A stretch of 64,000 nucleotides of DNA. Source: Candidatus Eiseniibacteriota bacterium. Its GTDB lineage: Bacteria; Eisenbacteria; RBG-16-71-46; JABDJR01. The stretch's first letter is position 1. Each line of letters opens with the position of its first letter. The notes under the pieces are model-generated. The model saw only the letters and a list, made by a program, of their open reading frames with translations, made no database searches and was not told the DNA's origin. The DNA lies in contig CAVYIE010000007.1 of assembly GCA_963768615.1 (NCBI GenBank), positions 653,181 through 717,180 of the forward strand, given 5' to 3'. The position numbers and the translations under genes were made by a program. Positions 6,804-51,302 of this stretch are shown one piece after another.

Positions 6804-8857
6804 ACCCGATCGATCCCGTGACCGCAGGCGGGGACCCGGGCACGGAACGGCCGGGGCTGTTCCTCTCCCCCATCCTGCTCCTGGTGGTGGTGGCCTACGG
6901 CCTGGCCGCCCTCGGCTGGGGAGGCACCCTGTTCCTGGCGGCGGCGGGCTCGGCGGCCGCGCTGCTCCTGCCCGGGAACGCCCTTCTCCTCGCCTTCTCC
7001 TATCCCCGGACCCGGGCCCGGGACCTGGTCCTGGGAGCCGCGCTATCCCCGGTGGTCCTGGGAGCCACGGTAGCCGCCGCCCTTCTCACCGGTTCCCCGG
7101 TCCTGGTCTGGGTGCGGGGCCTGCTTCTCGGCTGCGGTCTGGGCATGCTGGTGCTGCGAGTGGCGGGAGACGGGACCGCGGCCGGGGACGACGAGGAGAT
7201 TCCCGCCGCGGCCTGGCTGGTGGGGCTGCTGGCCCTGGCCGCGGTGGCCCTCATCCTCCTGCCCGAACCCTGGCGGAGGAGCAACTCCGACGCCTGGTTC
7301 CACACCGCGGTGGTGTTCGAGATGGCCCGGGCCGGGGTGCCCCCCCAGGATCCCTACTTCGCCGGACTCACCCTCCAGTACTTCTGGTTCTATCACGCGG
7401 TGGTCCTGGGGCTGGGGGCCGCGGCCGGCCTCTCCCCTCCCGACGCCATGACCCTGCTCAACCTGGCCGCGGCGCTCCTGACCCCTCCCGCGGCGAGCCG
7501 GGTGGCCCGGGCCCTCGGCTTCTCCCCCGCCGCCGGCACCTGGGCCGGGGTGCTCGTTCTCCTCGGGATGGGAGGCCTCTCCTGGCTCTTCTTCCCCCTC
7601 AAGCTGGTCGGGGTCCTGATCGGCGACGTGCGCGGCTACCAGGCCCTCCACGACATCATCTCCCTGGGAGCGACGAACCCGTCCAACACATCCCGGCTGG
7701 TCCAGTTCCTGAGCAGCTCCAGCTTCATGATGCGGAAGTACGTGATCGGCACCGCGGTCCCCTGGTCGTTGCTCCTGGTGCTCGTCGCCGCCGACGCCGC
7801 GTTGCGCTTCGTCCGCGACCTGCGTCCGGCCGACGCCGCCCTCCTCGTCGCCGCCGGGGCGGGAGCCTTCCTCTTCCACGTGGTCCTGGGCGGCGCCCTC
7901 ATCGCCGGCCTGGCCGCGGGGGCGGGCATCCTCTTCCTGGCCGGGCGGGGCATGCGGGGCCGCGCCCTGGGAGTGGCGGTCCTGGCCGCGGCCGCCCTCG
8001 CCCTCTGCCTGCCCTACCTGCTGACCCTGGTCGGCGGCCGGGGGGGCGCTTCCGCGCTTCCCTTCGGGCTCAGCCTGCGGCTGTGGGTCTCCATCCCCTT
8101 CACCCTGGCCGGGGTGGCGCTCCTCTCCGTTCCCGCCTGGCGCCGGCTGGCCCGGGCCGGAACCCCGGCCGCCCGGCTCTACATGGCCTGGTTCGCGGCC
8201 GTCACCCTCTACGCCCTCATCGCCCGGCTTCCCGGGGCCAACCAGTACGACAAGCCCCCCATCCTCATCTACCTCCCCCTGTCCCTCGCCGCGGGCATGG
8301 CCGTCCCCGGGATCTGGCGCGCCCTGGCCGGACGCCCCCGGACCCGGGTGGCCTTCGCGCTGCTCCTGGTGCTGTTCCTGCTCCCCGAGAACGCCTTCCG
8401 GTGGTGGGGGTTCTACGGGGAAGCGGCACCCCCCGCGCTCACCGCCGCCGAGCACGACCTGTACTCCTGGGTGAGGGACGACACGCCCCGCGACGCGGTG
8501 TTCGTGGACTCGGCCGACCGCATGGAGGTGGTGGTGCGCGGACCCCGCCGCCAGTACTGGGGCATCCCCGCCTACGCCGAGCAGTGGGGCTACGATCCGG
8601 CGGAAATGGCCCTCCGGCAGGCGGTGCGGGATTCGGTCTACGCCTCGGGGCGGATCGGTCCCGCGGGAAAGGCGGACCTGGCCTCGCTCCACGCCCCGGT
8701 CTACGTGATCGTGAGGGACGAGGACACCCCGGGGGCGGCCGACCGACTCCTGGCCCTCCCCCGGCGCTACCGCCCCCTCTTCCACGAGGACGGGATCCGG
8801 GTGTTCCGGATCGTGCTCCCGGACACCACGGTGAAGCAGCCGGCTAGAACTGGGTGA
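6800..8857 (+). CDS. Polytopic membrane protein, putative GT-C-type glycosyltransferase (paralog of 18594..21152)
   Basis: The ATG at 6800 overlaps the GT4 stop (ATGA). The protein is 685 aa with more than 11 predicted TM helices. A periplasmic-loop motif SDAWFHTAVVFEMARAGVPPQDPYFAG resembles GT-C catalytic loop motifs (ArnT REMLASG, STT3 DPYF). A C-terminal soluble domain follows. The upstream part of ORF 5186..8857 is an antisense artefact. Confidence 0.6.
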   Translation: MNPIDPVTAGGDPGTERPGLFLSPILLLVVVAYGLAALGWGGTLFLAAAGSAAALLLPGNALLLAFSYPRTRARDLVLGAALSPVVLGATVAAALLTGSPVLVWVRGLLLGCGLGMLVLRVAGDGTAAGDDEEIPAAAWLVGLLALAAVALILLPEPWRRSNSDAWFHTAVVFEMARAGVPPQDPYFAGLTLQYFWFYHAVVLGLGAAAGLSPPDAMTLLNLAAALLTPPAASRVARALGFSPAAGTWAGVLVLLGMGGLSWLFFPLKLVGVLIGDVRGYQALHDIISLGATNPSNTSRLVQFLSSSSFMMRKYVIGTAVPWSLLLVLVAADAALRFVRDLRPADAALLVAAGAGAFLFHVVLGGALIAGLAAGAGILFLAGRGMRGRALGVAVLAAAALALCLPYLLTLVGGRGGASALPFGLSLRLWVSIPFTLAGVALLSVPAWRRLARAGTPAARLYMAWFAAVTLYALIARLPGANQYDKPPILIYLPLSLAAGMAVPGIWRALAGRPRTRVAFALLLVLFLLPENAFRWWGFYGEAAPPALTAAEHDLYSWVRDDTPRDAVFVDSADRMEVVVRGPRRQYWGIPAYAEQWGYDPAEMALRQAVRDSVYASGRIGPAGKADLASLHAPVYVIVRDEDTPGAADRLLALPRRYRPLFHEDGIRVFRIVLPDTTVKQPARTG

Positions 8858-9866
8858 GGAACCGGAGGTCGTTCTCCAGGAAGAGGCGGATGTCCGGAAC
8901 GCCGTGGCGGAGAATCGCGATGCGCTCGACCCCCATTCCCGCCGCGTAGCCCGAGACCTCCTCGGGGTCGTAGCCCGCGTTCCGGAGCACCTGGGGATGC
9001 ACCATGCCCGCGCCCAGGATCTCGATCCAGCCCGTCTGCTTGCACAGCCGGCAGCCCGAGCCCAGGCACTGGAAACAGGTGATGTCCACCTCCGCCCCCG
9101 GTTCCACGAAGGGGAAGTAGGAGGGGCGGAAGCGCACGTCGAGGCTCCGTCCGAACATCTCCCGGGCGAAGGTGGTGAGGGTCCCCCGGAGGTCCTTCAT
9201 GGTCACCCCCCGGTCCACGTAGAGCACCTCCACCTGGTGGAACTCCGAGGAATGGGTGGCGTCCTGGGTCTCGTTCCGGTAGACGCGGCCGGGGAACACC
9301 TTCCGCACCGGCGGAGGCTGGCTCTCCATCACCCGAATCTGCACCGGGGAGGTGTGGGTGCGCAGCACCACCGACTCGGAGATGAAGAAGGTGTCCTGCA
9401 TGTCCCGGGCGGGGTGGCCGGGAGGCATGTTGAGGGCCTGGAAGTTGTGGTAGTCGTCCTCGACGTCCGGCCCCCGGGCCACGGAGAAACCCATACCCCG
9501 GAAGATGTCGAGGATCCGCTCCTCGGTCTGGGTGAGGAGGTGGGCCACTCCCAGGGGGGGCCGGATTCCGGGCAGGGTGGGATCCTCGGCCGGACCCGTC
9601 CGGCCCGCTCCGAGGGCCCGCTCCCGCTCGGCGTAGGCCGACTCCAGGGTCTGCCTGGCCTGGTTGGCCGCCTGCCCCACCGCCCCCCGCTCCTCCGCGG
9701 GCACGTCCTTGAGCCCCCGGAGCACCCCGGTCAGGGGCGACTTCCGAGCCAGGTGCCGGACCCGGGCCGCCTCCAGGGCACCCGGATCCGGGGCCCCGGT
9801 GATCTCGGCCAGGGCCTCCTCCCGGATGCGGTGGATCTGGTTGAGGAGCTCGGCGGCGGCGGGCAC
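8844..9866 (-). CDS. pheS: Phenylalanine--tRNA ligase alpha subunit
   Basis: 340 aa with class II aaRS motifs (...FPGRVYRNETQDATHSSEFHQVEVLYVD...GWIEILGAGMVHPQVL...). Confidence 0.95.
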   Translation of the reverse strand: MPAAAELLNQIHRIREEALAEITGAPDPGALEAARVRHLARKSPLTGVLRGLKDVPAEERGAVGQAANQARQTLESAYAERERALGAGRTGPAEDPTLPGIRPPLGVAHLLTQTEERILDIFRGMGFSVARGPDVEDDYHNFQALNMPPGHPARDMQDTFFISESVVLRTHTSPVQIRVMESQPPPVRKVFPGRVYRNETQDATHSSEFHQVEVLYVDRGVTMKDLRGTLTTFAREMFGRSLDVRFRPSYFPFVEPGAEVDITCFQCLGSGCRLCKQTGWIEILGAGMVHPQVLRNAGYDPEEVSGYAAGMGVERIAILRHGVPDIRLFLENDLRFLTQF

Positions 9867-9869
9867 GGC

Positions 9870-10229
9870 CTAGGCGCTCACCGCCTCCCGGGCCACCGTG
9901 GCCAGCTCCTTGAACGCCTCGGCGTCCCGCACCGCCAGCTCGGCCAGGAGCTTGCGGTCGATGTCCACGCTGGCCCGCTTCAAGCCGTTGATGAGGGTGC
10001 TGTAGGACATCCCGTTCTGGCGGGCGGCGGCGTTGATCCGGGTGATCCACAGCCGGCGGAAGTCCCGCTTCTTGCGGCGGCGATGCTCGTAGGCGAACTG
10101 GAGGCCGCGCATGACGGTCTCGTTGGCGCTCTTGAACAGGCGGGACCGGCCGCCGACGTTGCCTTTGGCCGCGGCCAGGACCTTCTTTCGCCGGGCGCGT
10201 CCCGGCACCACTCCACGTGCGCGTGGCAT
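9870..10229 (-). CDS. rplT: 50S ribosomal protein L20
   Basis: 119 aa MPRARGVVPGRARRKKVLAAAKG...FKSANETVMRGLQFAYEHRR. Confidence 0.95.
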   Translation of the reverse strand: MPRARGVVPGRARRKKVLAAAKGNVGGRSRLFKSANETVMRGLQFAYEHRRRKKRDFRRLWITRINAAARQNGMSYSTLINGLKRASVDIDRKLLAELAVRDAEAFKELATVAREAVSA

Positions 10230-10313: not shown

Positions 10314-10511
10314 CTAGCTGTAGGGCAGCATCCTCTTGACGTGACCCTCGTCGGCCTTGTCCACCATGGTGGCCTGGCGGAGGTTCCGCTTCCGCTTGGT
10401 GTCCTTCTTGGTGAGGATGTGGCTGTGATACGCCTTCCCGCGCTTCATGCGGCCGGACGCGGTGACCTTGAAGCGCTTGGCCGCGCCCCGCTTGGTCTTC
10501 ATCTTGGGCAT
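10314..10511 (-). CDS. rpmI: 50S ribosomal protein L35
   Basis: 65 aa [36 protein letters not shown]. Confidence 0.95.
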
Positions 10512-10540: not shown

Positions 10541-11107
10541 CTAGGCCGGAGCCTCCTCGTCGTCCTTGCCGGTCTTCCCCCGGTCCTTGCGGGGCATCAT
10601 GTACATGGTCATGGTGTAGCCCTCCATGCGGGGAGGGTTCTCCACCTGCGCGATGTCGTCGAGGTCGACCGCGGCCCGGTCCAGCAGGGCCCGGCCCAGT
10701 TCCGAGTGGGCCATCTCCCGGCCCCGGAACATGACCGTGAACTTGACCTTGTTCTTCTCCTCGAGGAAGTTGCGGGCGTGGTTGACCTTGAAGTCGAAAT
10801 CGTGGTCGTCGATCTTGGGCCGGAACTTGACTTCCTTGACCTGGATCCGGTGCTGGACCTTCTTGGCCTTGGCCGCCCGCTTGCTCAGCTCGTATTTGTA
10901 CTTGCCGAAGTCCATGACCCGGCAGACCGGCGGGGACGCCTGCGGCGACACCTCGACCAGGTCCAATCCCCGCTCGCGAGCGAGCTTGAGCGCCTCGTAG
11001 GAGGACATCACCCCGATCTGGCTGCCGTCCTCGTCCACCACCCGCACGGTGGGAATACGAATGCGCTCGTTGACCCGAACTTGGTCCTCTTTCTTGGCTA
11101 TGCCCAT
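10541..11107 (-). CDS. infC: Translation initiation factor IF-3
   Basis: 188 aa ...[53 protein letters not shown]... Confidence 0.95.
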
Positions 11108-11433: not shown

Positions 11434-13346
11434 TTATTGCCGGGACTGGATCTCGGCAAGAATTTTCTCGGTGAACCCGGCCCGGGGGCTGGCCCCCAGA
11501 TCCCCGTCCCCCCGGTGGCGGACGGACACCGTTCCCGCCTCCTGGTCCCGCCGGCCCACCACCAGCATGTAGGGAACCTTGAGCAGCTCCGCATCGCGGA
11601 TCTTGGCCCCTATCTTCTCGTTACGCTCGTCAACCTCCACCCGGACCCCGGCCTCGAAGAGCTCCCGCCGGACCTCCTCGGCATAGTCCAGGTTCTGGGG
11701 GCTGATGGGGAGCACCTTGACCTGGGTGGGGGCCAGCCAGAGGGGAAAGTCCCCGGCGTAGTGCTCGATCAGGACCCCGAAGAACCGCTCGATGGACCCC
11801 AGGAGCGCCCGATGGATCATGTACGGCCGGTGTTTCTCCCCGTCGTCCCCGATGTAGTACAGGTCGAAGCGCTCCGGCTCGTTGAAGTCGAACTGGATCG
11901 TGCTGCACTGCCAGGAACGGCCGATGGCATCCTGGATCTTGATGTCGATCTTGGGCCCGTAGAAGGCGCCCCCTCCCTGGTCCACCTGGAAGGGGAGCCC
12001 CACCGCCTCCAGGGCCTTCCGCAGGGCGGCCTCCGCCGCCTCCCAGTCGCCGGACTCCCCCACCGCCTTTTCGGGCCGGGTGGAGAGGTAGAGGTCGAAC
12101 TCCTTGAACCCGAACGCGCGAAGCATGTCCAGGCAGAAGCGGAGCACCCGCTCGATCTCCTCCTCCATCTGCTCCGGACGCACGAAGAGGTGGGCGTCGT
12201 CCTGGGTGAAGCCGCGGACCCGCATGAGGCCGTGCAGCACCCCCGGCATCTCGTAGCGATACACGGTGCCCAGCTCCGCCCAGCGCATGGGCAGATCCCG
12301 GTAGGAGTGCAGGCTGTTCTGGTACATCTTGATGTGGAACGGGCAATTCATCGGCTTCACGTAGAATTCCTGGTCGTCCATCTCCATGGGCGGATACATG
12401 AACTCCCGGTAGAAGCCGAGATGGCCGGAGGTCTCCCACAGGTTGGCCCGGCCCACGTGGGGCGAGTACACGATCTCGTATCCGTTCTTCAGGTGCTCGT
12501 CGCGCCAGAAGTCCTCGATCACCTTGCGGATCCGGCCGCCGCGGGGATGCCAGAACACCAGTCCCCCGCCCACGTCCTCGTGGAGGGAGAAGAGGTCCAT
12601 CTCCTTGCCGATCTTCCGGTGGTCGCGCTTCTTGGCCTCCTCCAGCCGGTGGAGGTAGTCGTCGAGCTGATCCTGGGAGTACCAGGAGGTGCCGTAGATG
12701 CGCTGCAGCCGGTCCCGGTCCGAGTCCCCGCGCCAGTAGGAGCCGGCCACCGAGAGCAGCTTGACCGCGTGGAGCCGGCCGGTGGAGGGCAGGTGGGGCC
12801 CGGTGCAGAGATCCACGAAGTCCCCGTGGCGGAAGAGGGTCACCTGGGGATCGGTGATCCCCTCCAGGATCTCCACCTTGAACTTGTCCCGGCGCTGCTT
12901 GAAGTACTCGACGGCCTCTTCCCGCTTCATCCAGCTCTTCTCGAAGGGGACGTCGCGGCGGGCGATCTCGCGCATCCGGTCCTCGATCCGGGCCAGGTCC
13001 TCCTCGGTGAAAGGGCGCTCGGTCTCGAAGTCGTAGAAGAACCCGTCCTCGATGGCCGGCCCGATGGCGTACTTGGTGCCGGGGAACAGCTCCTCCACCG
13101 CCGAGGCCATGATGTGGGCGGAGCTGTGACGGTAGAGGTCGCGGGCGGCGGGATCGTCGAAGCCGAGCAGGCGGACCTCGGCCCCGTCCCGGACCGGTTC
13201 GTAGAGTCCCTTGAGGACCCCGTCCTCCTGGACGGCGAGGATCTCCTCCCCCCCCCCGCCGCACGAACCAGGTCGGAGTAGACGGCGTTCTCCGCCACCT
13301 CAACCGGACGCCGGGCGCTGTCTTCGATCACCGTGACCTTGGGCAT
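11434..13346 (-). CDS. thrS: Threonine--tRNA ligase (apparent frameshift at a C10 homopolymer)
   Basis: ORF 11434..13110 encodes the catalytic and anticodon-binding domains (RHSSAHIMASAVEEL...HRDLPMRWAELGTVYRYE...). The TGS-domain N-terminus (MPKVTVIEDSARRPVEVAENAVYSDLVRAAGGG) lies in a different frame, in ORF 12927..13346. The two frames would join if the C10 run at 13250-13259 were C11 (giving ...AAGGGEEILAVQEDG...). Confidence 0.85.
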
Positions 13347-13533: not shown

Positions 13534-13610
13534 TGGTGGGCGATAGTGGACTTGAACCACTGACCTCTTGCATGTCAAGCAAGCACTCTAACCAACTGAG
13601 CTAATCGCCC
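13534..13610 (-). tRNA. tRNA-Val (anticodon GAC)
   Basis: Manual cloverleaf: acceptor GGGCGAT/ATCGCCC, D-arm GCTC-AGTTGGTTA-GAGT, anticodon arm CTTGC-TTGACAT-GCAAG, T-arm AGTGG-TTCAAGT-CCACT, encoded 3' CCA. Confidence 0.9.
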
Positions 13611-13628
13611 GCGAAACTTGGGGATGGG

Positions 13629-13656
13629 AGCATACCAGAGGGGGCGTCCCTGTCAA
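13629..13656 (-). promoter_or_regulatory. Putative sigma70-type promoter for tRNA-Val
   Basis: Minus strand: TTGACA (13656-13651), 16-nt spacer, TATGCT (13634-13629), then about 18 nt to the tRNA 5' end. Overlaps a 9-bp hairpin (gggcgtccc/gggacgccc) downstream of the preceding gene. Confidence 0.3.
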
Positions 13657-13678
13657 GACGCGGGACGCCCTCCCGCGC

Positions 13679-13969
13679 CTACCATTCCGCCTCGTCTTCC
13701 TCCTCTTCCTCCTCTTCCTCGAAGTCCTCGTCCTCGTCGTCGTCGTCGTCCCAGTCCTCGTCGTCGTCGTCGAAGTCCTCGTCGTCTTCGTCTTCTTCTT
13801 CTTCGTCGTCGTAGAGCTCGTCGTCTTCTTCTTCGTCGATCATATACACCTCATCGCTGCCGCATTCGGGACAATAGCGGATCACCTCGTCGGGGTTTTC
13901 CTCGGAGGCCTCCTCGTCGAAGGTCGTGCCGTCCTCGTCCGTGTACCCGCAGTTGTCGCACTGCCACAT
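13679..13969 (-). CDS. Small zinc-ribbon protein with a poly-acidic C-terminal tail
   Basis: ATG at 13969 preceded by GGAGGT. MWQCDNCGYTDEDG...RYCPECGSDEVYMIDEEEDDELYDDEEEEDEDDEDFDDDDEDWDDDDDEDEDFEEEEEEEEDEAEW has CxxC...CxxC followed by about 60 residues of D/E. ORF 13679..14107 as listed runs into the tRNA; the internal start is preferred. Confidence 0.6.
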   Translation of the reverse strand: MWQCDNCGYTDEDGTTFDEEASEENPDEVIRYCPECGSDEVYMIDEEEDDELYDDEEEEDEDDEDFDDDDEDWDDDDDEDEDFEEEEEEEEDEAEW

Positions 13970-14074
13970 GCCAGTACCTCCAGCTCTCGCCAAGTCCCAC
14001 AGTTCTGCACCGGGGGCCATGAGGGTACAACACACCCTCCGCACCGGTTCCACCCTTTTTCTGCCGGGAAGTGA

Positions 14075-14151
14075 TGGTGCCCCCGGGGTGACTCGAACAC
14101 CCGGCACGCGGTTTAGGAAACCGCTGCTCTATCCGCCTGAGCTACGGGGGC
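14075..14151 (-). tRNA. tRNA-Arg (anticodon CCT)
   Basis: Manual cloverleaf: GCCCCCG-TA-GCTC-AGGCGGATA-GAGC-A-GCGGT-TTCCTAA-ACCGC-GTGCC-GGGTG-TTCGAGT-CACCC-CGGGGGC-A-CCA. Confidence 0.9.
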
Positions 14152-14354: not shown

Positions 14355-15593
14355 TCAGGCGGCGTTCTTCACGTAGAGCTTCCGCAGTTCCACCCCGTCC
14401 ACGGAGGCCTTCCCGATGACCAGGCCGGTGGGCGAGGCCGCGGGCTGGAGCCGCAGGTACCAGGTCATGCGCTGGCGATTCAGGTCCAGTCGGTCCTGGG
14501 CCTTGAGCTTGCCCTCGGCCAGGGCCTGCACCTGGTCCTCGGGCACCACCAGGTCCTCGAGGAGGGCGCGGGGTCCGGGAGCCAGGGAGGCGGGATCCAG
14601 GGCCACGGCCACGTTCTCCGCCCGCAGCCGGAAGCCTTCGCCGTCCCTGACCACGAAGGCGTGCAGCGCCACCCGCTCCACCCCGCGCCAGGTCGCGCCC
14701 CGGTCGGCCCGGAACCCGCTGGCGTCGAGGTAGCCGGACCCGTCCCGCTCCTGGGTCATGGGTGGGCTCGCGCCCAGGGCCAGGGGAATGACGTCGACGT
14801 CCAGGTCGTCGTTTCCGCTCTCCTGAACGTCGCGGAGGATGGAGTCGAGGTGGTAGCGCGTCCCCTCGGTGCGGCTGAGATCGAAGCGCAGGGTGAGGGG
14901 CGCCGCCCCCCGGTCCCCTTTCACCAGGTCCTCGATGGATGCCTGGCGCAGCCCGGGAACACGAAGGTAGTAGTTCTCGACGATCGCGTTCCGGCCGATC
15001 CAGTGGGGCCAGCTGACCACGTTCACGGCCACGTAGCGGGAGTCGTCGGGGTTGACCAGCGCCGCCAGTCCGCCCGCGGCGGGGGGCGGGTTCCCGGCCC
15101 GGGCCACCACCTGGGCCAGGGACGCCTGCTGGGAATAGGAGCGGGTCATGTGATCCCGCGCCACTCCCACCACCGCCGCCAGCACCGCCAGCACGCCCAG
15201 GAACACGAAGGGGAGCACCACCTTCTGCTTCCGGGAGGGGGTCAGGGAGTGTTCGTGGAGCGCCGAGATGGTGCTCCCCGCCCCTGGCCCCGCCCCCCCG
15301 CCCGCCGCGGGAGAGGCGGCCTTGGCGTGCAGGGCCTCCATGTCGGCGACGTCCTTGACCGTGAGACCGGCGGCGGCGGCCTTCTCCCGGACCGCGGCCA
15401 CCTCCCCGGCGGTCATGGGGTCGGACCGGACCACCGAGTGCATGAAGTTGACCGCGTGGTAGCCCTTGATACCCAGATCCTGGATCAGCTTGCGGGCCTC
15501 GGTCTCCCCGCGCCCCATACCCGCCAGCTCCACCAGGCCCTTGCTGTCGATCCGCACCTCGACCGGATGGGTCTTCACAACCATCGTCATCAC
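14355..15593 (-). CDS. Hypothetical single-pass membrane protein (cytoplasmic N-domain of about 120 aa, one TM, periplasmic C-domain of about 270 aa)
   Basis: 412-aa ORF with ordinary, non-PGR-rich composition. TM segment VVLPFVFLGVLAVLAAVVGVA. No recognisable family. Transcribed divergently from the flippase/GT operon. Confidence 0.6.
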   Translation of the reverse strand: MMTMVVKTHPVEVRIDSKGLVELAGMGRGETEARKLIQDLGIKGYHAVNFMHSVVRSDPMTAGEVAAVREKAAAAGLTVKDVADMEALHAKAASPAAGGGAGPGAGSTISALHEHSLTPSRKQKVVLPFVFLGVLAVLAAVVGVARDHMTRSYSQQASLAQVVARAGNPPPAAGGLAALVNPDDSRYVAVNVVSWPHWIGRNAIVENYYLRVPGLRQASIEDLVKGDRGAAPLTLRFDLSRTEGTRYHLDSILRDVQESGNDDLDVDVIPLALGASPPMTQERDGSGYLDASGFRADRGATWRGVERVALHAFVVRDGEGFRLRAENVAVALDPASLAPGPRALLEDLVVPEDQVQALAEGKLKAQDRLDLNRQRMTWYLRLQPAASPTGLVIGKASVDGVELRKLYVKNAA

Positions 15594-47212: not shown

Positions 47213-48259
47213 TCACGGCGAGACGGCGCGCCGTCCGGCGGGACGGGGCGGCGCCGAGGCCAGCGCCCGGACCACCCGGTCCGGGGAAATGTCCAGCATG
47301 CAGCGAAAGTGACCCTTCGGGCAGTGCGGGCCCCCGTGGAGGGAGCACGGGCGGCAGGAGAGCGAGTCGACCTCCAGGACGCGGTGGTCCGGGCCCGCGG
47401 GAGCGAAGCCAAAGGATCGCACGGTCGGGCCGAACAATGCCACCACCGGGACGCCCATGGCCGCGGCCACGTGCATGAGCCCGGTGTCGTTGACCGCCAC
47501 CGCGGCCAGGCGCTCCAGGACGGCCGCGGCCTCCAGGACCGGAGCCCGGACCGGGAACCAGCCTTCCTCCCCGGGCCAGAGGCGCGTCCACGCGGCCAGG
47601 AGCGCGTTCTCCTCCGGGTCGCTCCCGGGGCCGAAGAAGACCGGCACCGGACCGCGCCCGGCGGCGGCCAGGGCGCGACCCACCTCCACGAACCGCTCCA
47701 CCGGCCATCGCTTGGTGGCGTGGCGGGCGCCGGGCACCAGCCCCACCCGTTCTCCCGCTTCCGGCACCCGTTCCCGGGCCCGTTCCCGGGCCCCGGGCCC
47801 CGGGTGGAGGGCGGGCAGCGCCTCCGAGCCGGGATCCACGGCGGCGGTGAAGGTCCGGAGCACCGAGAACCCCGGCTCCGGGCCGCCCCGGTGGAGATGG
47901 ACCAGGAGCCGCCGCCGGAGATGGCGCCGCCGGGGACGCCGGACCCGGACCAGGCCGGCCAGCCGGGTCAGCACCCGGGTCCGGGGGGAGGCCTGGAGGT
48001 CGAAGGTCTCCACGTACCCCTCACCCCGGAGCCTGCGGGCCCAGGCCCGCACCCCCCGGGGTCCGCGTTCCGAGGCCGGCCAGACCCACACCCGGCGCAC
48101 CGCCGGATGCCCCTCCCAGAGGGGAGCCCAGGCCGCCTTGACCAGGACGTCCACCGCTCCCGGCCCCCAGCGCTCGCGGGCCGCCTCGGCGGCGGCGGTG
48201 GCCAGGACCACGTCCCCCAGGGAGCCCAGCCGGATGAGGAGGCGGGGCTCCGGGCTCAC
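47213..48259 (-). CDS. ADP-heptose:LPS heptosyltransferase (GT9, WaaF/WaaC family)
   Basis: 348 aa ...LLIRLGSLGDVVLATAA...VNDTGLMHVAAAMGVPVVALFGPT..., characteristic of GT9. Confidence 0.8.
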   Translation of the reverse strand: MSPEPRLLIRLGSLGDVVLATAAAEAARERWGPGAVDVLVKAAWAPLWEGHPAVRRVWVWPASERGPRGVRAWARRLRGEGYVETFDLQASPRTRVLTRLAGLVRVRRPRRRHLRRRLLVHLHRGGPEPGFSVLRTFTAAVDPGSEALPALHPGPGARERARERVPEAGERVGLVPGARHATKRWPVERFVEVGRALAAAGRGPVPVFFGPGSDPEENALLAAWTRLWPGEEGWFPVRAPVLEAAAVLERLAAVAVNDTGLMHVAAAMGVPVVALFGPTVRSFGFAPAGPDHRVLEVDSLSCRPCSLHGGPHCPKGHFRCMLDISPDRVVRALASAPPRPAGRRAVSP

Positions 48260-50868
48260 CCCCGCCCCGTCGACCGTTTCGGCTTCTTCCCCCGGCCCGT
48301 GGAACCGGTGGAGCGGCGGGAGACCGGCTTGTTCTTCGCCTTCTTCTTCGTCGCCTTCTTCTTCGTCTTCTTGCCGGACCTCCGCCCCGGGCCCGGGGCC
48401 TTGAGGGCGGCATCGAGCACGTCCTGGATGTTCGCCGCGGTCACGAACTCCATGCTCGCCCGCACGTCCTCGGGCACCTCGTCCAGATCGGGCCGGTTGG
48501 CCTCGGGGAGGATGATCCGCTTGATCCCGGCCCGGCGGGCCCCCAGCACCTTCTGCTTCAACCCGCCGATGGGGAGCACGTTCCCCCGCAGGGAGATCTC
48601 GCCGGTCATGGCCGTGTCGGAGCGTACGGCCCGGTCGGAGAGGAGCGAGGCCACCGCGGTGACCATGGCCACCCCCGCCGAGGGGCCGTCCTTGGGCATG
48701 GCCCCGGCGGGCACGTGGATGTGCAGGTCGTGCTTCTCGAACTGGGGATCCTCGACCCCCAGCTCGGCGGCGTGGGACCGGACGTAGGAGATGGCGGCCA
48801 CCGCCGATTCCCGCATCACGTCCCCCAGCTGGCCGGTGAGGGTCAGGTTCCCCCGGCCCGGCATCCGGGTGGCCTCCACGAAGAGGATCTCGCCTCCGTA
48901 GGGGGTCCAGGCCAGCCCGGTGACCACCCCCACCCGGTTCCTCCGCTCCCGGCGCTCCCGGAACACCTTGGGCTTCCCCAGGTAGTCGGCGAGGTTCTTC
49001 CTCCCCACCCTGGCCTTCACCTTCTTCCCCCGCGCCACCCGGGTGGCCACCTTGCGGGCCACCCGGTTGATCTGGCGCTCCAGCTCCCGGACCCCGGCCT
49101 CGTGGGTGTACTCGTTGGCGATGGCGGTCAGCGCCGACTTGAGGATGGAGAGGTTGCCGGAGGCGATCCCGTTGTCGCTCAGGGCCCGGGGCACCAGGTA
49201 GCGCCGGGCGATCTCCACCTTGTCCCCGGTGGTGTAGCCGGGCAGCTCGATCACCTCCATCCGGTCCCGGAGCGGCCCGGGAATGGAGTAGAGCACGTTG
49301 GCGGTGGTGATGAAGAGGACCGAGGACAGGTCGTAGGGCACGTTCAGGTAGTTGTCCTGGAAGCTGTTGTTCTGGGCCGGATCCAGCACCTCGAGCAGGG
49401 CCGAGGTCGGGTCCCCCCGGAAGTCGGCCCCCACCTTGTCCACCTCGTCGAGCATGAACACCGGATCCGGGGCCTTGGCGGTGGCCACCCCCTGCACGAT
49501 CCGGCCCGGCATGGCCCCGATGTAGGTACGCCGGTGGCCGCGGATCTCCGCCTCGTCGTGGAGGCCGCCCAGGGACAGGCGCACGAAGGGACGGTCCAGG
49601 GCGCGCGCGATGGACTGGCCGAGGGAGGTCTTCCCCACCCCGGGGGGGCCGGAGAGGCAGAGGATGGGGCTCCGGGGGTGGTCGGTGAGCTTGCGCACGG
49701 CCAGGTACTCGAGGATCCGCTCCTTGACCTGCTGGAGGTCGAAGTGGTCCTCGTTGAGGATCCGCTCCGCCCGGCCGATGTCGATGGGGGGGCGCTCGGG
49801 CCGCTTCCAGGGTAGCTGGAGCATCCAGTCGATGTAGGTGCGGGCCACGGTGTATTCCGCCGCCTGGGGCGGCATCACCTTCATGCGGTCGAACTCCTTC
49901 ATGACCGCGTCCAGGACCGCCTCCGGCATCTCCGCATCCTCGATCCGCTGCTTCAGGTCGGCCAGCTCGGGGTTCTCCTCCTCCCCCCCCAGCTCCTTCT
50001 GGATGGCCTTGAGCTGCTGGCGAAGGTAGAACTCCCGCTGGGTCTTCTCCATCTCCGTCTGGACCTGGTCCTGGATCCGCCGGCCCAGGGCGAGGATGTC
50101 CAGCTCGCGGACCATGTAGGCGGTCACCCGCTCCAGCCGGCGCTCCGGATTCCTCTCCTCGAGGAGGGCGAGCTTGTCCTCCAGCTTCAGGTTCAGGTTG
50201 GCGCCCAGGAAGTCGGCCAGGCGGCCCACCCCCTCCACGTTCAGGGCCACCACCTTGAGCTCGTCGGAGAGGTAGCCGGTGGCGTCCACCAGCTTCTGGA
50301 ACAGCTCCAGCGCGTTCCGGCGGAGTGCTTCCCCCCGCCGGGAGACCGGCTTCTCGGTGGGGACCATCTCCACCTCGCCCTTGAGGTACGGCTGCTCCTG
50401 CACCGTGCGGACGAGACGGATCCGCGCCACCCCCTGGACCAGGAGCCGCATGCCCCCGTCGGGGAAGCGCAGCATCTTGTGGATGATGGCCGCGGTGCCG
50501 GTGCCGGCCAGCTCCCGGTGCGAGGCCACGCTGCGGGCCCGGGCGCCGCCGTCGGAGGCCCGGTTGGCCTCGCCCCCGTCATCCCCCTCCTCTCCTTCGT
50601 TCCCCCCGCCGTCGGCGGAGGCGCCCGAAGGGACGGTGTCCCCGTCCCCGTCCTCCCCCTCCGGGGAACGCACGGTGAACAGCCCGATCATCTTGCTGCC
50701 GGCCAGGGCCTCGTCCACCAGGTCCAGGAGCTCCCGCTCGCTGACCACCAGCGGGAACATCATGTACGGGAACGCCACCAGGTCCGTGAGGGGGACCAGG
50801 GGGAGCACGGTGGGAATCTTGAGGGTCTGACCGGAGTCGGTTTCCACGGTCATCGTCGTTTCGGCCAT
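48256..50868 (-). CDS. lon: ATP-dependent protease Lon, with an acidic insertion in the N-domain and a Lys-rich C-terminal extension
   Basis: 870 aa with a Lon N-domain, AAA+ domain (LCLSGPPGVGKTSLGQSIARAL) and protease domain (DGPSAGVAMVTAVASLL...K). The C-terminus is ...RRSGKKTKKKATKKKAKNKPVSRRSTGSTGRGKKPKRSTGRG. Confidence 0.95.
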   Translation of the reverse strand: MAETTMTVETDSGQTLKIPTVLPLVPLTDLVAFPYMMFPLVVSERELLDLVDEALAGSKMIGLFTVRSPEGEDGDGDTVPSGASADGGGNEGEEGDDGGEANRASDGGARARSVASHRELAGTGTAAIIHKMLRFPDGGMRLLVQGVARIRLVRTVQEQPYLKGEVEMVPTEKPVSRRGEALRRNALELFQKLVDATGYLSDELKVVALNVEGVGRLADFLGANLNLKLEDKLALLEERNPERRLERVTAYMVRELDILALGRRIQDQVQTEMEKTQREFYLRQQLKAIQKELGGEEENPELADLKQRIEDAEMPEAVLDAVMKEFDRMKVMPPQAAEYTVARTYIDWMLQLPWKRPERPPIDIGRAERILNEDHFDLQQVKERILEYLAVRKLTDHPRSPILCLSGPPGVGKTSLGQSIARALDRPFVRLSLGGLHDEAEIRGHRRTYIGAMPGRIVQGVATAKAPDPVFMLDEVDKVGADFRGDPTSALLEVLDPAQNNSFQDNYLNVPYDLSSVLFITTANVLYSIPGPLRDRMEVIELPGYTTGDKVEIARRYLVPRALSDNGIASGNLSILKSALTAIANEYTHEAGVRELERQINRVARKVATRVARGKKVKARVGRKNLADYLGKPKVFRERRERRNRVGVVTGLAWTPYGGEILFVEATRMPGRGNLTLTGQLGDVMRESAVAAISYVRSHAAELGVEDPQFEKHDLHIHVPAGAMPKDGPSAGVAMVTAVASLLSDRAVRSDTAMTGEISLRGNVLPIGGLKQKVLGARRAGIKRIILPEANRPDLDEVPEDVRASMEFVTAANIQDVLDAALKAPGPGRRSGKKTKKKATKKKAKNKPVSRRSTGSTGRGKKPKRSTGRG

Positions 50869-50873
50869 CGTCC

Positions 50874-51302
50874 CTATTCCACCTCGATCTTGAATTCCTC
50901 GGCCCGGGGCCGGGGTTCGGACTTGAGCCGGATCTCCAGCACCCCGTCGCGGTAGCAGGCGGCGGCACCCGACCGGGCGAACCGCTCCGGGACCTGCACG
51001 CTCCGGGCGAAGGGGCCCATGGCGATTTCCATCTTGTGGAAGGTCTTCCGGCCGGGGGGGGTGGCGTCCCGGCGCAGACCCCGCACGTGGACGATCCGTC
51101 CCCGCATGAGGATCTGCACGTCCTTCCGGTCCACCCCGGAGAGATCCATCCTGATCACGAACTCGTCCTCGGTCTCATAGGCATCGGTGGCCGGATACCA
51201 CACCACGTCCGCTTCCACGCTGCTCCGGCCGGGCTCCAGGAACAGGTGCTCGACCAGGTCCCGGAAGTTGCCCCATCGTTCTTCGAAATCTCCGGCTGCC
51301 AC
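50874..51302 (-). CDS. Hsp20/alpha-crystallin family small heat-shock protein
   Basis: 142 aa ...PATDAYETEDEFVIRMDLSGVDRKDVQILMRGRIVHVRGLRRD...GVLEIRL. Confidence 0.9.
   Translation of the reverse strand: MAAGDFEERWGNFRDLVEHLFLEPGRSSVEADVVWYPATDAYETEDEFVIRMDLSGVDRKDVQILMRGRIVHVRGLRRDATPPGRKTFHKMEIAMGPFARSVQVPERFARSGAAACYRDGVLEIRLKSEPRPRAEEFKIEVE

Follow-up and report, generated by a model that had tools for sequence, protein, structure and literature searches.

The gene analysed here lies on the (-) strand of a window of 64,000 nucleotides, the whole stretch of DNA examined, taken from contig CAVYIE010000007.1 of the Candidatus Eiseniibacteriota assembly GCA_963768615.1. It encodes a 96-residue protein with a four-cysteine ribbon at its N-terminal end and a tail of aspartate and glutamate containing two Trp residues. 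The gene is real, is strongly constrained and belongs to one family-level clade of Candidatus Eisenbacteria. Structure prediction indicates that its product is a four-Cys ribbon joined to an intrinsically disordered polyanionic tail. By analogy with YacG or DSS1, the most likely role is that of a docking protein, the polyanionic tail with its two Trp filling a basic surface meant for nucleic acid, a reading to which a probability of roughly 0.4 is given.

The 96-codon coding sequence occupies 13679..13969, stop included, running from an ATG at 13969 to a TAG stop at 13681–13679, and a profile search of its own genome finds it in single copy. A GGAGG ribosome-binding site at 13977..13981 on the same strand lies 7 nt 5' of the ATG and is present in five of the six aligned loci. 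A mechanical list of open reading frames (ORFs) gives a longer form starting at a GTG at 14107. Because this GTG lies within a tRNA-Arg gene and 50 of the 55 homologs begin directly with M[W/R]QC, the ATG at 13969 is taken as the true start. The N-terminus, MWQC, reads as having no leader and the protein is therefore cytoplasmic.

All 55 candidates found at E ≤ 0.01 with query residues 1–46 are homologs, with ribbon identities of 59–93% and lengths of 72–133 aa. The alignment used for conservation holds 49 of 56 sequences, the excluded ones being five whose starts are called upstream and two whose tails are aberrant and non-acidic (together P0005, P0009, P0010, P0016, P0020, P0025 and P0037). 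The cysteines are arranged as C4-x2-C7 and C33-x2-C36, in knuckles of the form CxxCGY and CPECGS, and all four are invariant in the 49 aligned sequences. A further 13 columns are also invariant: M1, Q3, N6, G8, Y9, T10, D11, F17, P34, E35, G37, S38 and D39. Over 31 ungapped codons compared with 13 loci, nonsynonymous divergence of the ribbon is 0.01–0.23 and synonymous divergence ranges from 0.42 to saturated, with a ratio of the two (dN/dS) of 0.007–0.29 where this is computable. The idea that the sequence is a translated leader, acting as an attenuator, is ruled out because the ribbon is under such strong constraint at the protein level.

The carriers of these homologs are Candidatus Eisenbacteria, an uncultured soil bacterial group. 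In a whole-genome profile scan 6 of 206 Eisenbacteria genomes are positive, all of one family, and in that family the gene is present in five of the seven genomes other than that of the window. The two family genomes without it carry no information on this point: the G001 contig stops within thrS, and G007 is 75% complete and has no thrS match. A profile of six ribbon domains, searched against 1.84 billion representative proteins of any length, gives 18 matches at E ≤ 0.001, nine of them at E ≤ 1e-10, and several of the 18 are long proteins aligned through several short stretches. Among these, P0057, P0062–P0064, P0066 and P0067 have short-stretch matches only (five were judged from the match table alone); P0067 is a run of Y-x-D-E-D-G-N-T-F repeats with no ribbon. 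No fused form of the protein turned up, the longer and shorter modes of the word-indexed search not having been run. Weak matches beyond the Eisenbacteria are unrelated ribbons, namely L012 and L032 (HypA-like), L013 (FmdB-like), L030, L031 and the viral L037 and L038.

Residues 1–44 (13838..13969, (-) strand) form an acidic ribbon of rubredoxin type, as indicated by the invariant cysteines and knuckles and by the AlphaFold2 model made from the 49-row alignment. The model has four short strands in residues 2–43, with block values of the predicted local distance difference test (pLDDT) of about 78–89. Residues 45–96 (13682..13837) have no predicted secondary structure and a block mean pLDDT of 50–69, which together with the composition suggests a disordered tail. 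The metal of the ribbon would be Zn or Fe, four invariant Cys in knuckles of this type fitting either.

No family of Pfam, NCBIfam, PADLOC or PHROGs is matched above its cut-off by the 96-residue protein. The best Pfam score is sub-threshold, RUBY_RBDX at 20.7 bits against a cut-off of 26.5, as is that of the RCKP-type rubredoxin-like family at 18.7 bits against 45. The FmdB-family zinc ribbon is likewise not matched, with TIGR02605 at 11.3 against 31.3 bits and PF09723 at 12.4 against 34.4. Foldseek finds nothing in the PDB at E ≤ 0.001, and a wide VIA-align search returns generic zinc ribbons only (23 chains at Z ≥ 2, the best a TFIIE-type ribbon at Z 3.3). In a sequence profile search of the PDB the best match, an archaeal RpoM (E 0.00087), aligns at the two knuckles alone; rubredoxins align over residues 2–38 at E about 6. 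A description of the family was not found, at the level of titles and abstracts, among the papers listed on Eisenbacteria or on bacterial zinc ribbons with acidic tails.

The whole protein contains 28 Asp, 31 Glu, no Lys, no His and one Arg, giving a net charge of about -58. The tail is 52 residues long when counted from the end of the ribbon or 58 when counted from CPECGS; those 58 residues are 81% Asp/Glu, have no Lys, Arg or His, and end in EAEW. The ribbon is acidic too, with 12 Asp/Glu and one Arg in residues 1–44, and should therefore bind a basic protein and is unlikely to bind nucleic acid itself. Such composition is rare in the genome: in six frames of the 4.62 Mb only three stop-to-stop segments have at least 21 Asp/Glu per 30 residues, and the top-scoring one is the tail described here, at 27 of 30. 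The other two lie at G000:C2:174109-174639 and G000:C7:519677-520849; one is an RNA polymerase omega subunit (Rpb6 domain, 26.9 bits) with an Asp/Glu-rich stretch downstream of the matched domain, and the other an NYN-domain protein with an Asp/Glu-rich region.

At the DNA level the tail is an imperfect triplet array, in which TRF finds periods of 3–30 with 71–75% matches. Glu is encoded by GAA in 12 of 23 codons of the tail (13682–13837), compared with 3 of 55 in the adjacent thrS, and Asp by GAC in 22 of 22. The GAA excess is weaker in the tail of L007 (8 of 24 compared with 5 of 54) and is not seen in all relatives; it may reflect avoidance of GAGGAG runs, which resemble Shine-Dalgarno sequences, or repeat slippage. 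An Arg/Pro-rich ORF of 134 aa on the opposite strand (13618–14022, (+) strand) is open because the reverse complements of GAN codons contain no stops.

The observations of the original prediction are borne out by these results. It had proposed a 96-residue ORF with a good ribosome-binding site, which the ATG and GGAGG confirm, encoding a zinc ribbon with a hyper-acidic tail, which is confirmed by the predicted fold and the composition. It had also placed the gene between tRNA-Val and tRNA-Arg, where ARAGORN and Rfam both find these genes, and had dismissed the Pro/Arg-rich ORF of the opposite strand as spurious; that ORF exists, as a by-product of codon composition. The ORF and its cysteines are conserved in related genomes, contrary to the lack of conservation that it had named as refuting; the homologs and their contexts, which it had singled out for checking, are as described above and below.

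Across 60 family sequences the tail varies from 25 to 95 residues (median 43.5) and from 24 to 84% Asp/Glu (median 60%), or from 32 to 84% once the two aberrant non-acidic tails are dropped. A terminal Trp is present in 43 of the 60, and two or more tail Trp in 45, a pattern not mentioned in the original prediction. With the aberrant tails dropped, 42 of 58 have an internal and a terminal Trp together, and in these the internal Trp lies 8–24 residues (median 15) before the terminal one. It is flanked by Asp or Glu at position -1 in 34 of the 42 and at position +1 in 35, the commonest context being EDWDE, and the commonest end of the protein is EEW. Distant members P0061 and P0065 retain the terminal Trp. 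The two residues in the window protein are Trp73 (13751-13753) and Trp96 (13682-13684), and its tail is a long, pure extreme of the family and no outlier in kind.

The gene heads a (-) strand housekeeping string of tRNA-Val, thrS, infC, rpmI, rplT and pheS. These are located at 13534..13610 for tRNA-Val(GAC) (ARAGORN; Rfam 71.5 bits), 11434..13346 for thrS, 10541-11107 for infC, 10314-10511 for rpmI, 9870-10229 for rplT and 8844-9866 for pheS, the protein-coding genes being assigned by Pfam and tblastn synteny. In the window and five related genomes tRNA-Val(GAC) is found 62–97 nt 3' of the stop codon, followed by thrS and infC. A metagenome scan returned 12 loci, nine of them family members, of which L023, L027 and L029 are too short to judge; the six with enough downstream sequence all have tRNA-Val(GAC) 58–84 nt after the stop, and thrS is next in the five with room for it. 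The order of the gene and tRNA-Val(GAC) is therefore the same in all 12 judgeable loci, across four genera and metagenomes, with a spacer of 58–97 nt. In two sister-family genomes tRNA-Val(GAC)-thrS has no such gene upstream, the absence in G008 being uncertain since about 105 bases just upstream lie outside the sequence examined. On the simplest account, the family ancestor gained the gene, by origin on the spot or by insertion, directly upstream of tRNA-Val(GAC)-thrS-infC-rpmI-rplT-pheS, and the gene has stayed there.

The frame of thrS is broken at a C10 homopolymer (G10 on the coding strand) at 13248-13257, which leaves an ORF at 12927-13346 and the main ORF at 11434-13110 in different frames. 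The thrS genes of relatives are unbroken, at about 640–680 aa, and the break probably stems from an error in sequencing or assembling the homopolymer.

The 68-nt spacer after the stop contains a σ70-like promoter for tRNA-Val at 13629..13656 on the (-) strand (TTGACA-16-TATGCT with TG). Four of six spacers, those of the window, L007, L008 and L010, have a recognisable TTGACA ... TGnTATnCT; the L011 version is degenerate, and none is seen in L009. No conserved terminator was found in the six spacers between stop and tRNA, where folding z-scores are -1.19 to +1.16; without significant structure, read-through into tRNA-Val is therefore possible. Directly after the stop there is a 9-bp GC-rich inverted repeat (13642-13671) with the -35 hexamer of tRNA-Val in its loop, which is not conserved and is not significant against shuffled sequences. 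The Rfam match to sobemo_FSE at the same position is a chance one (19.9 bits compared with 55).

Upstream of the gene the neighbours vary. The tRNA-Arg(CCT) at 14075..14151 ((-) strand; ARAGORN; Rfam 62 bits) is upstream in part of the clade only, being found there also in L002/L007, L004/L008, L021 and L029. Elsewhere the upstream neighbours are NHL-repeat and FkbM proteins, an S9 peptidase, an SLT transglycosylase, an RCC1-repeat protein, a histidine kinase and an insertion sequence (IS) fragment. Alignment of six loci reveals a conserved block at 14018..14063 on the (-) strand, consisting of an A-tract, TGGAAY, 16 nt, TWGTAC and CCCTCATG, about 50–95 nt 5' of the ATG. The window shares it with L007, L008 and L009; L010 has a weak form and L011 none, and the full motif occurs once in the genome. 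This block may be the gene's own promoter. Upstream of tRNA-Arg there is a 412-aa ORF (14355-15593, (-) strand) that has no Pfam, PADLOC or PHROG match and is kept at 43–46% identity in the same genus only, with 36% in the metagenome locus L029.

The reading preferred here is that the ribbon would dock on one specific positively charged partner, while the tail would lie, as a nucleic-acid-like polyanion, in the DNA- or RNA-binding groove of that partner with the two Trp as hydrophobic anchors. The protein would in this way compete with nucleic acid or shield the basic surface. The suggestion in the original prediction that such a tail could belong to a DNA mimic or a chaperone is, by analogy, a reasonable one. 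If the tail is a two-anchor polyanionic plug, it would represent a natural and genetically simple form of nucleic-acid mimicry by a chromosomal gene of housekeeping type and not by a phage, and the partner would point to a regulatory step, in the nucleoid, at a topoisomerase or in translation, that is peculiar to this uncultured phylum. On its own, the gene is a clade-restricted orphan.

Several points weigh against this proposal. The tail is highly variable in both length and Asp/Glu content across the 60 sequences, and 17 of them have no terminal Trp, so a precise docking motif is not universal. RNA-labelled cover of the gene in public reads is faint only, over the ribbon part 13855-13965, and comes from two runs (X18 and X19) of other organisms; the best public run holds 0.15 of the sampled words. 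The read check covered three RNA runs and one DNA run at 80% likeness, and the RNA-labelled contigs lie mainly over the two tRNAs. The constant position beside translation genes may also be purely historical. Breakpoints would be selected against because the spacer is only 58–97 nt and holds the tRNA-Val promoter, which leaves little room for rearrangement, and linkage alone is therefore no proof of a translation-related role.

The charge and predicted disorder of the tail would also suit a polyelectrolyte chaperone or counter-ion for lysine-rich, histone-H1-like tails, forming a fuzzy, charge-driven complex. Passages of PMC7661507 describe such a disordered complex between prothymosin-alpha and histone H1. 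The genome does contain possible counterparts of the polyanion: a scan gave 12 extreme Lys-rich segments, including a 114-aa poly-Lys/Ala protein at C7:180842-181183, an HC2-like protein at 30.5 bits, below the cut-off of 40, and stretches in four larger frames where the adjacent sequence looks by eye like Lon, topoisomerase I and endonuclease III. The loci of these segments are G000:C7:180842-181183, C7:1927953-1928501, C8:268154-269179 and about 48259-51174 of the window; the HC2-like protein also carries a DUF1232 domain, and the frame in the window, of 972 aa, is Lon-like by eye with a Lys-rich C-terminal stretch. A pure counter-ion, however, needs neither a ribbon with dN/dS of about 0.01–0.03 nor two positioned Trp, and Lys-rich tails are widespread in bacteria that do not have this gene. 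A role of this kind, which like the docking proposal is argued by analogy, is considered unlikely.

The protein might instead serve translation as a dedicated, polyanionic mimic of RNA. Transcription of the gene would then continue into the tRNA-Val-thrS-infC-rpmI-rplT-pheST unit, and RNase P cleavage at tRNA-Val would create the 3' end of its mRNA. With the ribbon and the Trp pair as anchors, the protein would hold a basic component that binds RNA, such as IF3, a ribosomal protein or a tRNA synthetase, and chaperone or titrate it. Prediction of a complex with IF3, L35 and L20, partners picked by gene neighbourhood only, scored 0.00 against a mark of 0.32, with no controls, and speaks neither for nor against this idea. 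This possibility is regarded as decidedly unlikely.

A buffer or store for divalent cations (Ca, Mg, Mn or Fe), in which the carboxylate tail binds the ions and the ribbon only stabilises the protein, would account for the presence of 59 carboxylates in 96 residues. The length of the tail drifts by triplet-repeat change, as expected if bulk charge alone matters. The conserved Trp positions and the terminal Trp are left unexplained by such a function, and the conserved neighbourhood includes no gene for metal transport or storage, making it improbable.

The knuckles CxxCGY ... CPxCGS raise the question of whether the protein carries electrons on a true, rubredoxin-like Fe(Cys)4 centre and is steered to a basic redox partner by its acidic tail. 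It shares with rubredoxins the pattern CxxCG[YF] ... CPxCG and an acidic surface, its best sub-threshold matches are the rubredoxin-like ones given above, the rubredoxins of the PDB align with most of the ribbon, and one homolog carries the JGI name 'rubredoxin'. Every one of these matches is nonetheless below the family cut-off, the Pfam Rubredoxin family (presumably PF00301) is absent from the 23 families obtained at E up to 10, and the conserved context contains no redox gene. The Cys7–Cys33 loop is also, we take it, shorter than that of rubredoxins. An electron carrier is thus highly improbable.

LysW proteins have an end of the EDWGE type. A LysW-like carrier or scaffold, with an acidic tail at whose C-terminus a small molecule would be assembled or attached by ligation, is suggested by the matching architecture of a zinc ribbon and an acidic tail with Trp, by LysW zinc-ribbon clusters at 0.83–0.86 in an Atlas feature search (a lead only), and by a RimK-family ligase at 198 bits, the one strong match to that family in the genome. 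That ligase gene (L018, G000:C5:245671-249123) is split over two frames, with a Pfam match to model positions 40–187; from its translation it is presumably a canonical RimK ATP-grasp gene, and the split is likely another indel error in the assembly. The ORF just upstream, also from its translation, we take to be the usual RimK-associated protease. The ligase gene is on another contig (C5), and the neighbours of the gene studied here are tRNA, thrS and infC together with variable genes, not lysX/Z/Y/J/K. PF21344 (Zn_ribbon_LysW, cut-off 27 bits) is absent from the same 23 families, and its best six-frame match in the genome, at 13.8 bits, is away from the locus. In addition, the C-terminal residue is Trp in 43 of the 60 sequences and not the acceptor Glu, the residue to which the LysW substrate is attached according to passages of PMC12998189. 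The carrier reading is largely refuted, with very little probability left to it.

The original prediction had associated hyper-acidic tails with phage or defence proteins and tRNA genes with integration hotspots, while stating that no integrase was nearby. The last point stands: a scan of 18 ORFs between 5.6 and 23.7 kb of the window revealed none. The phage or defence framing does not: PADLOC matches no family, PHROG gives a single sub-threshold match of unknown function (E 0.0075), tblastn is negative against both 50,697 phage and 72,556 plasmid records, and the two viral contigs (L037 and L038) carry generic ribbons only. The hotspot framing also fails, the gene being a stable chromosomal resident in every judgeable relative. 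The gene is neither a mobile nor a defence element. Acidic DNA mimics are common in phages, the gene lies between two tRNA genes, phage contig L038 encodes a 43%-identical generic acidic zinc ribbon, and in L009 a fragment of an rve_3 integrase is found about 1 kb upstream of the homolog; that a mobile or anti-defence element inserted at a tRNA gene carries this gene as cargo is nevertheless the least probable of the readings, largely refuted by its identical chromosomal position in the 12 judgeable loci, the negative searches above and an evolutionary rate similar to that of ThrRS. The rve_3 core fragment (L009:2521-3030, (-) strand, 40.7 bits) is not shared by other loci and is probably an IS remnant.

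Among known systems, LysW/ArgW (PF21344) come closest of the named cluster types that the Atlas feature search gives. They are alike in being small acidic zinc ribbons with a flexible, acidic, Trp-bearing C-terminal tail, and they dock electrostatically on basic enzyme surfaces. The 96-residue protein differs from them in having no PF21344 match, in ending in Trp, in having no lysX-type neighbours and in a tail that is several times longer.

YacG is mainly proteobacterial, and so differs from the protein described here in clade; its family, PF03884 (cut-off 25.5 bits), is not listed for the protein and has no match in the genome at E up to 1. Passages of PMC4083091 describe YacG as an endogenous gyrase inhibitor of E. 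coli in which Trp40 and Trp59 dock in hydrophobic pockets of GyrB and GyrA and block DNA binding, and those of PMC4083091 and PMC2490753 as a small four-Cys zinc module with a tail that is unstructured when free. The likeness lies in the combination of a zinc module and a disordered tail with two Trp, which in YacG are about 20 residues apart; it is a likeness of architecture, with no evidence of homology. The tail of the 96-residue protein is far longer than that of YacG, almost purely Asp/Glu, and terminated by Trp.

Comparable Asp/Glu-rich nucleic-acid mimics include the acidic tails of the Bacillus RNA polymerase delta subunit, SSB and T7 gp2.5. DSS1, an acidic protein of small size that bears Trp and covers DNA-binding folds, is described in passages of PMC11329725 and PMC7641332 as stopping BRCA2 from binding DNA. 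With DSS1/Sem1 and other Asp/Glu-rich mimics such as prothymosin-alpha, the protein shares a disordered polyanion with embedded or terminal aromatic residues, which in those proteins covers DNA- or RNA-binding surfaces (parts of PMC11329725, PMC7641332, PMC7661507 and PMC6294567). They are unrelated to it in sequence and none has a zinc ribbon, so that the analogy is one of mechanism only. The protein may exemplify a recurrent but uncharacterised class of mini-proteins combining a zinc ribbon with an acidic Trp tail, and its resemblance to both LysW and YacG suggests a general, convergent design of small docking proteins that lies outside current family libraries.

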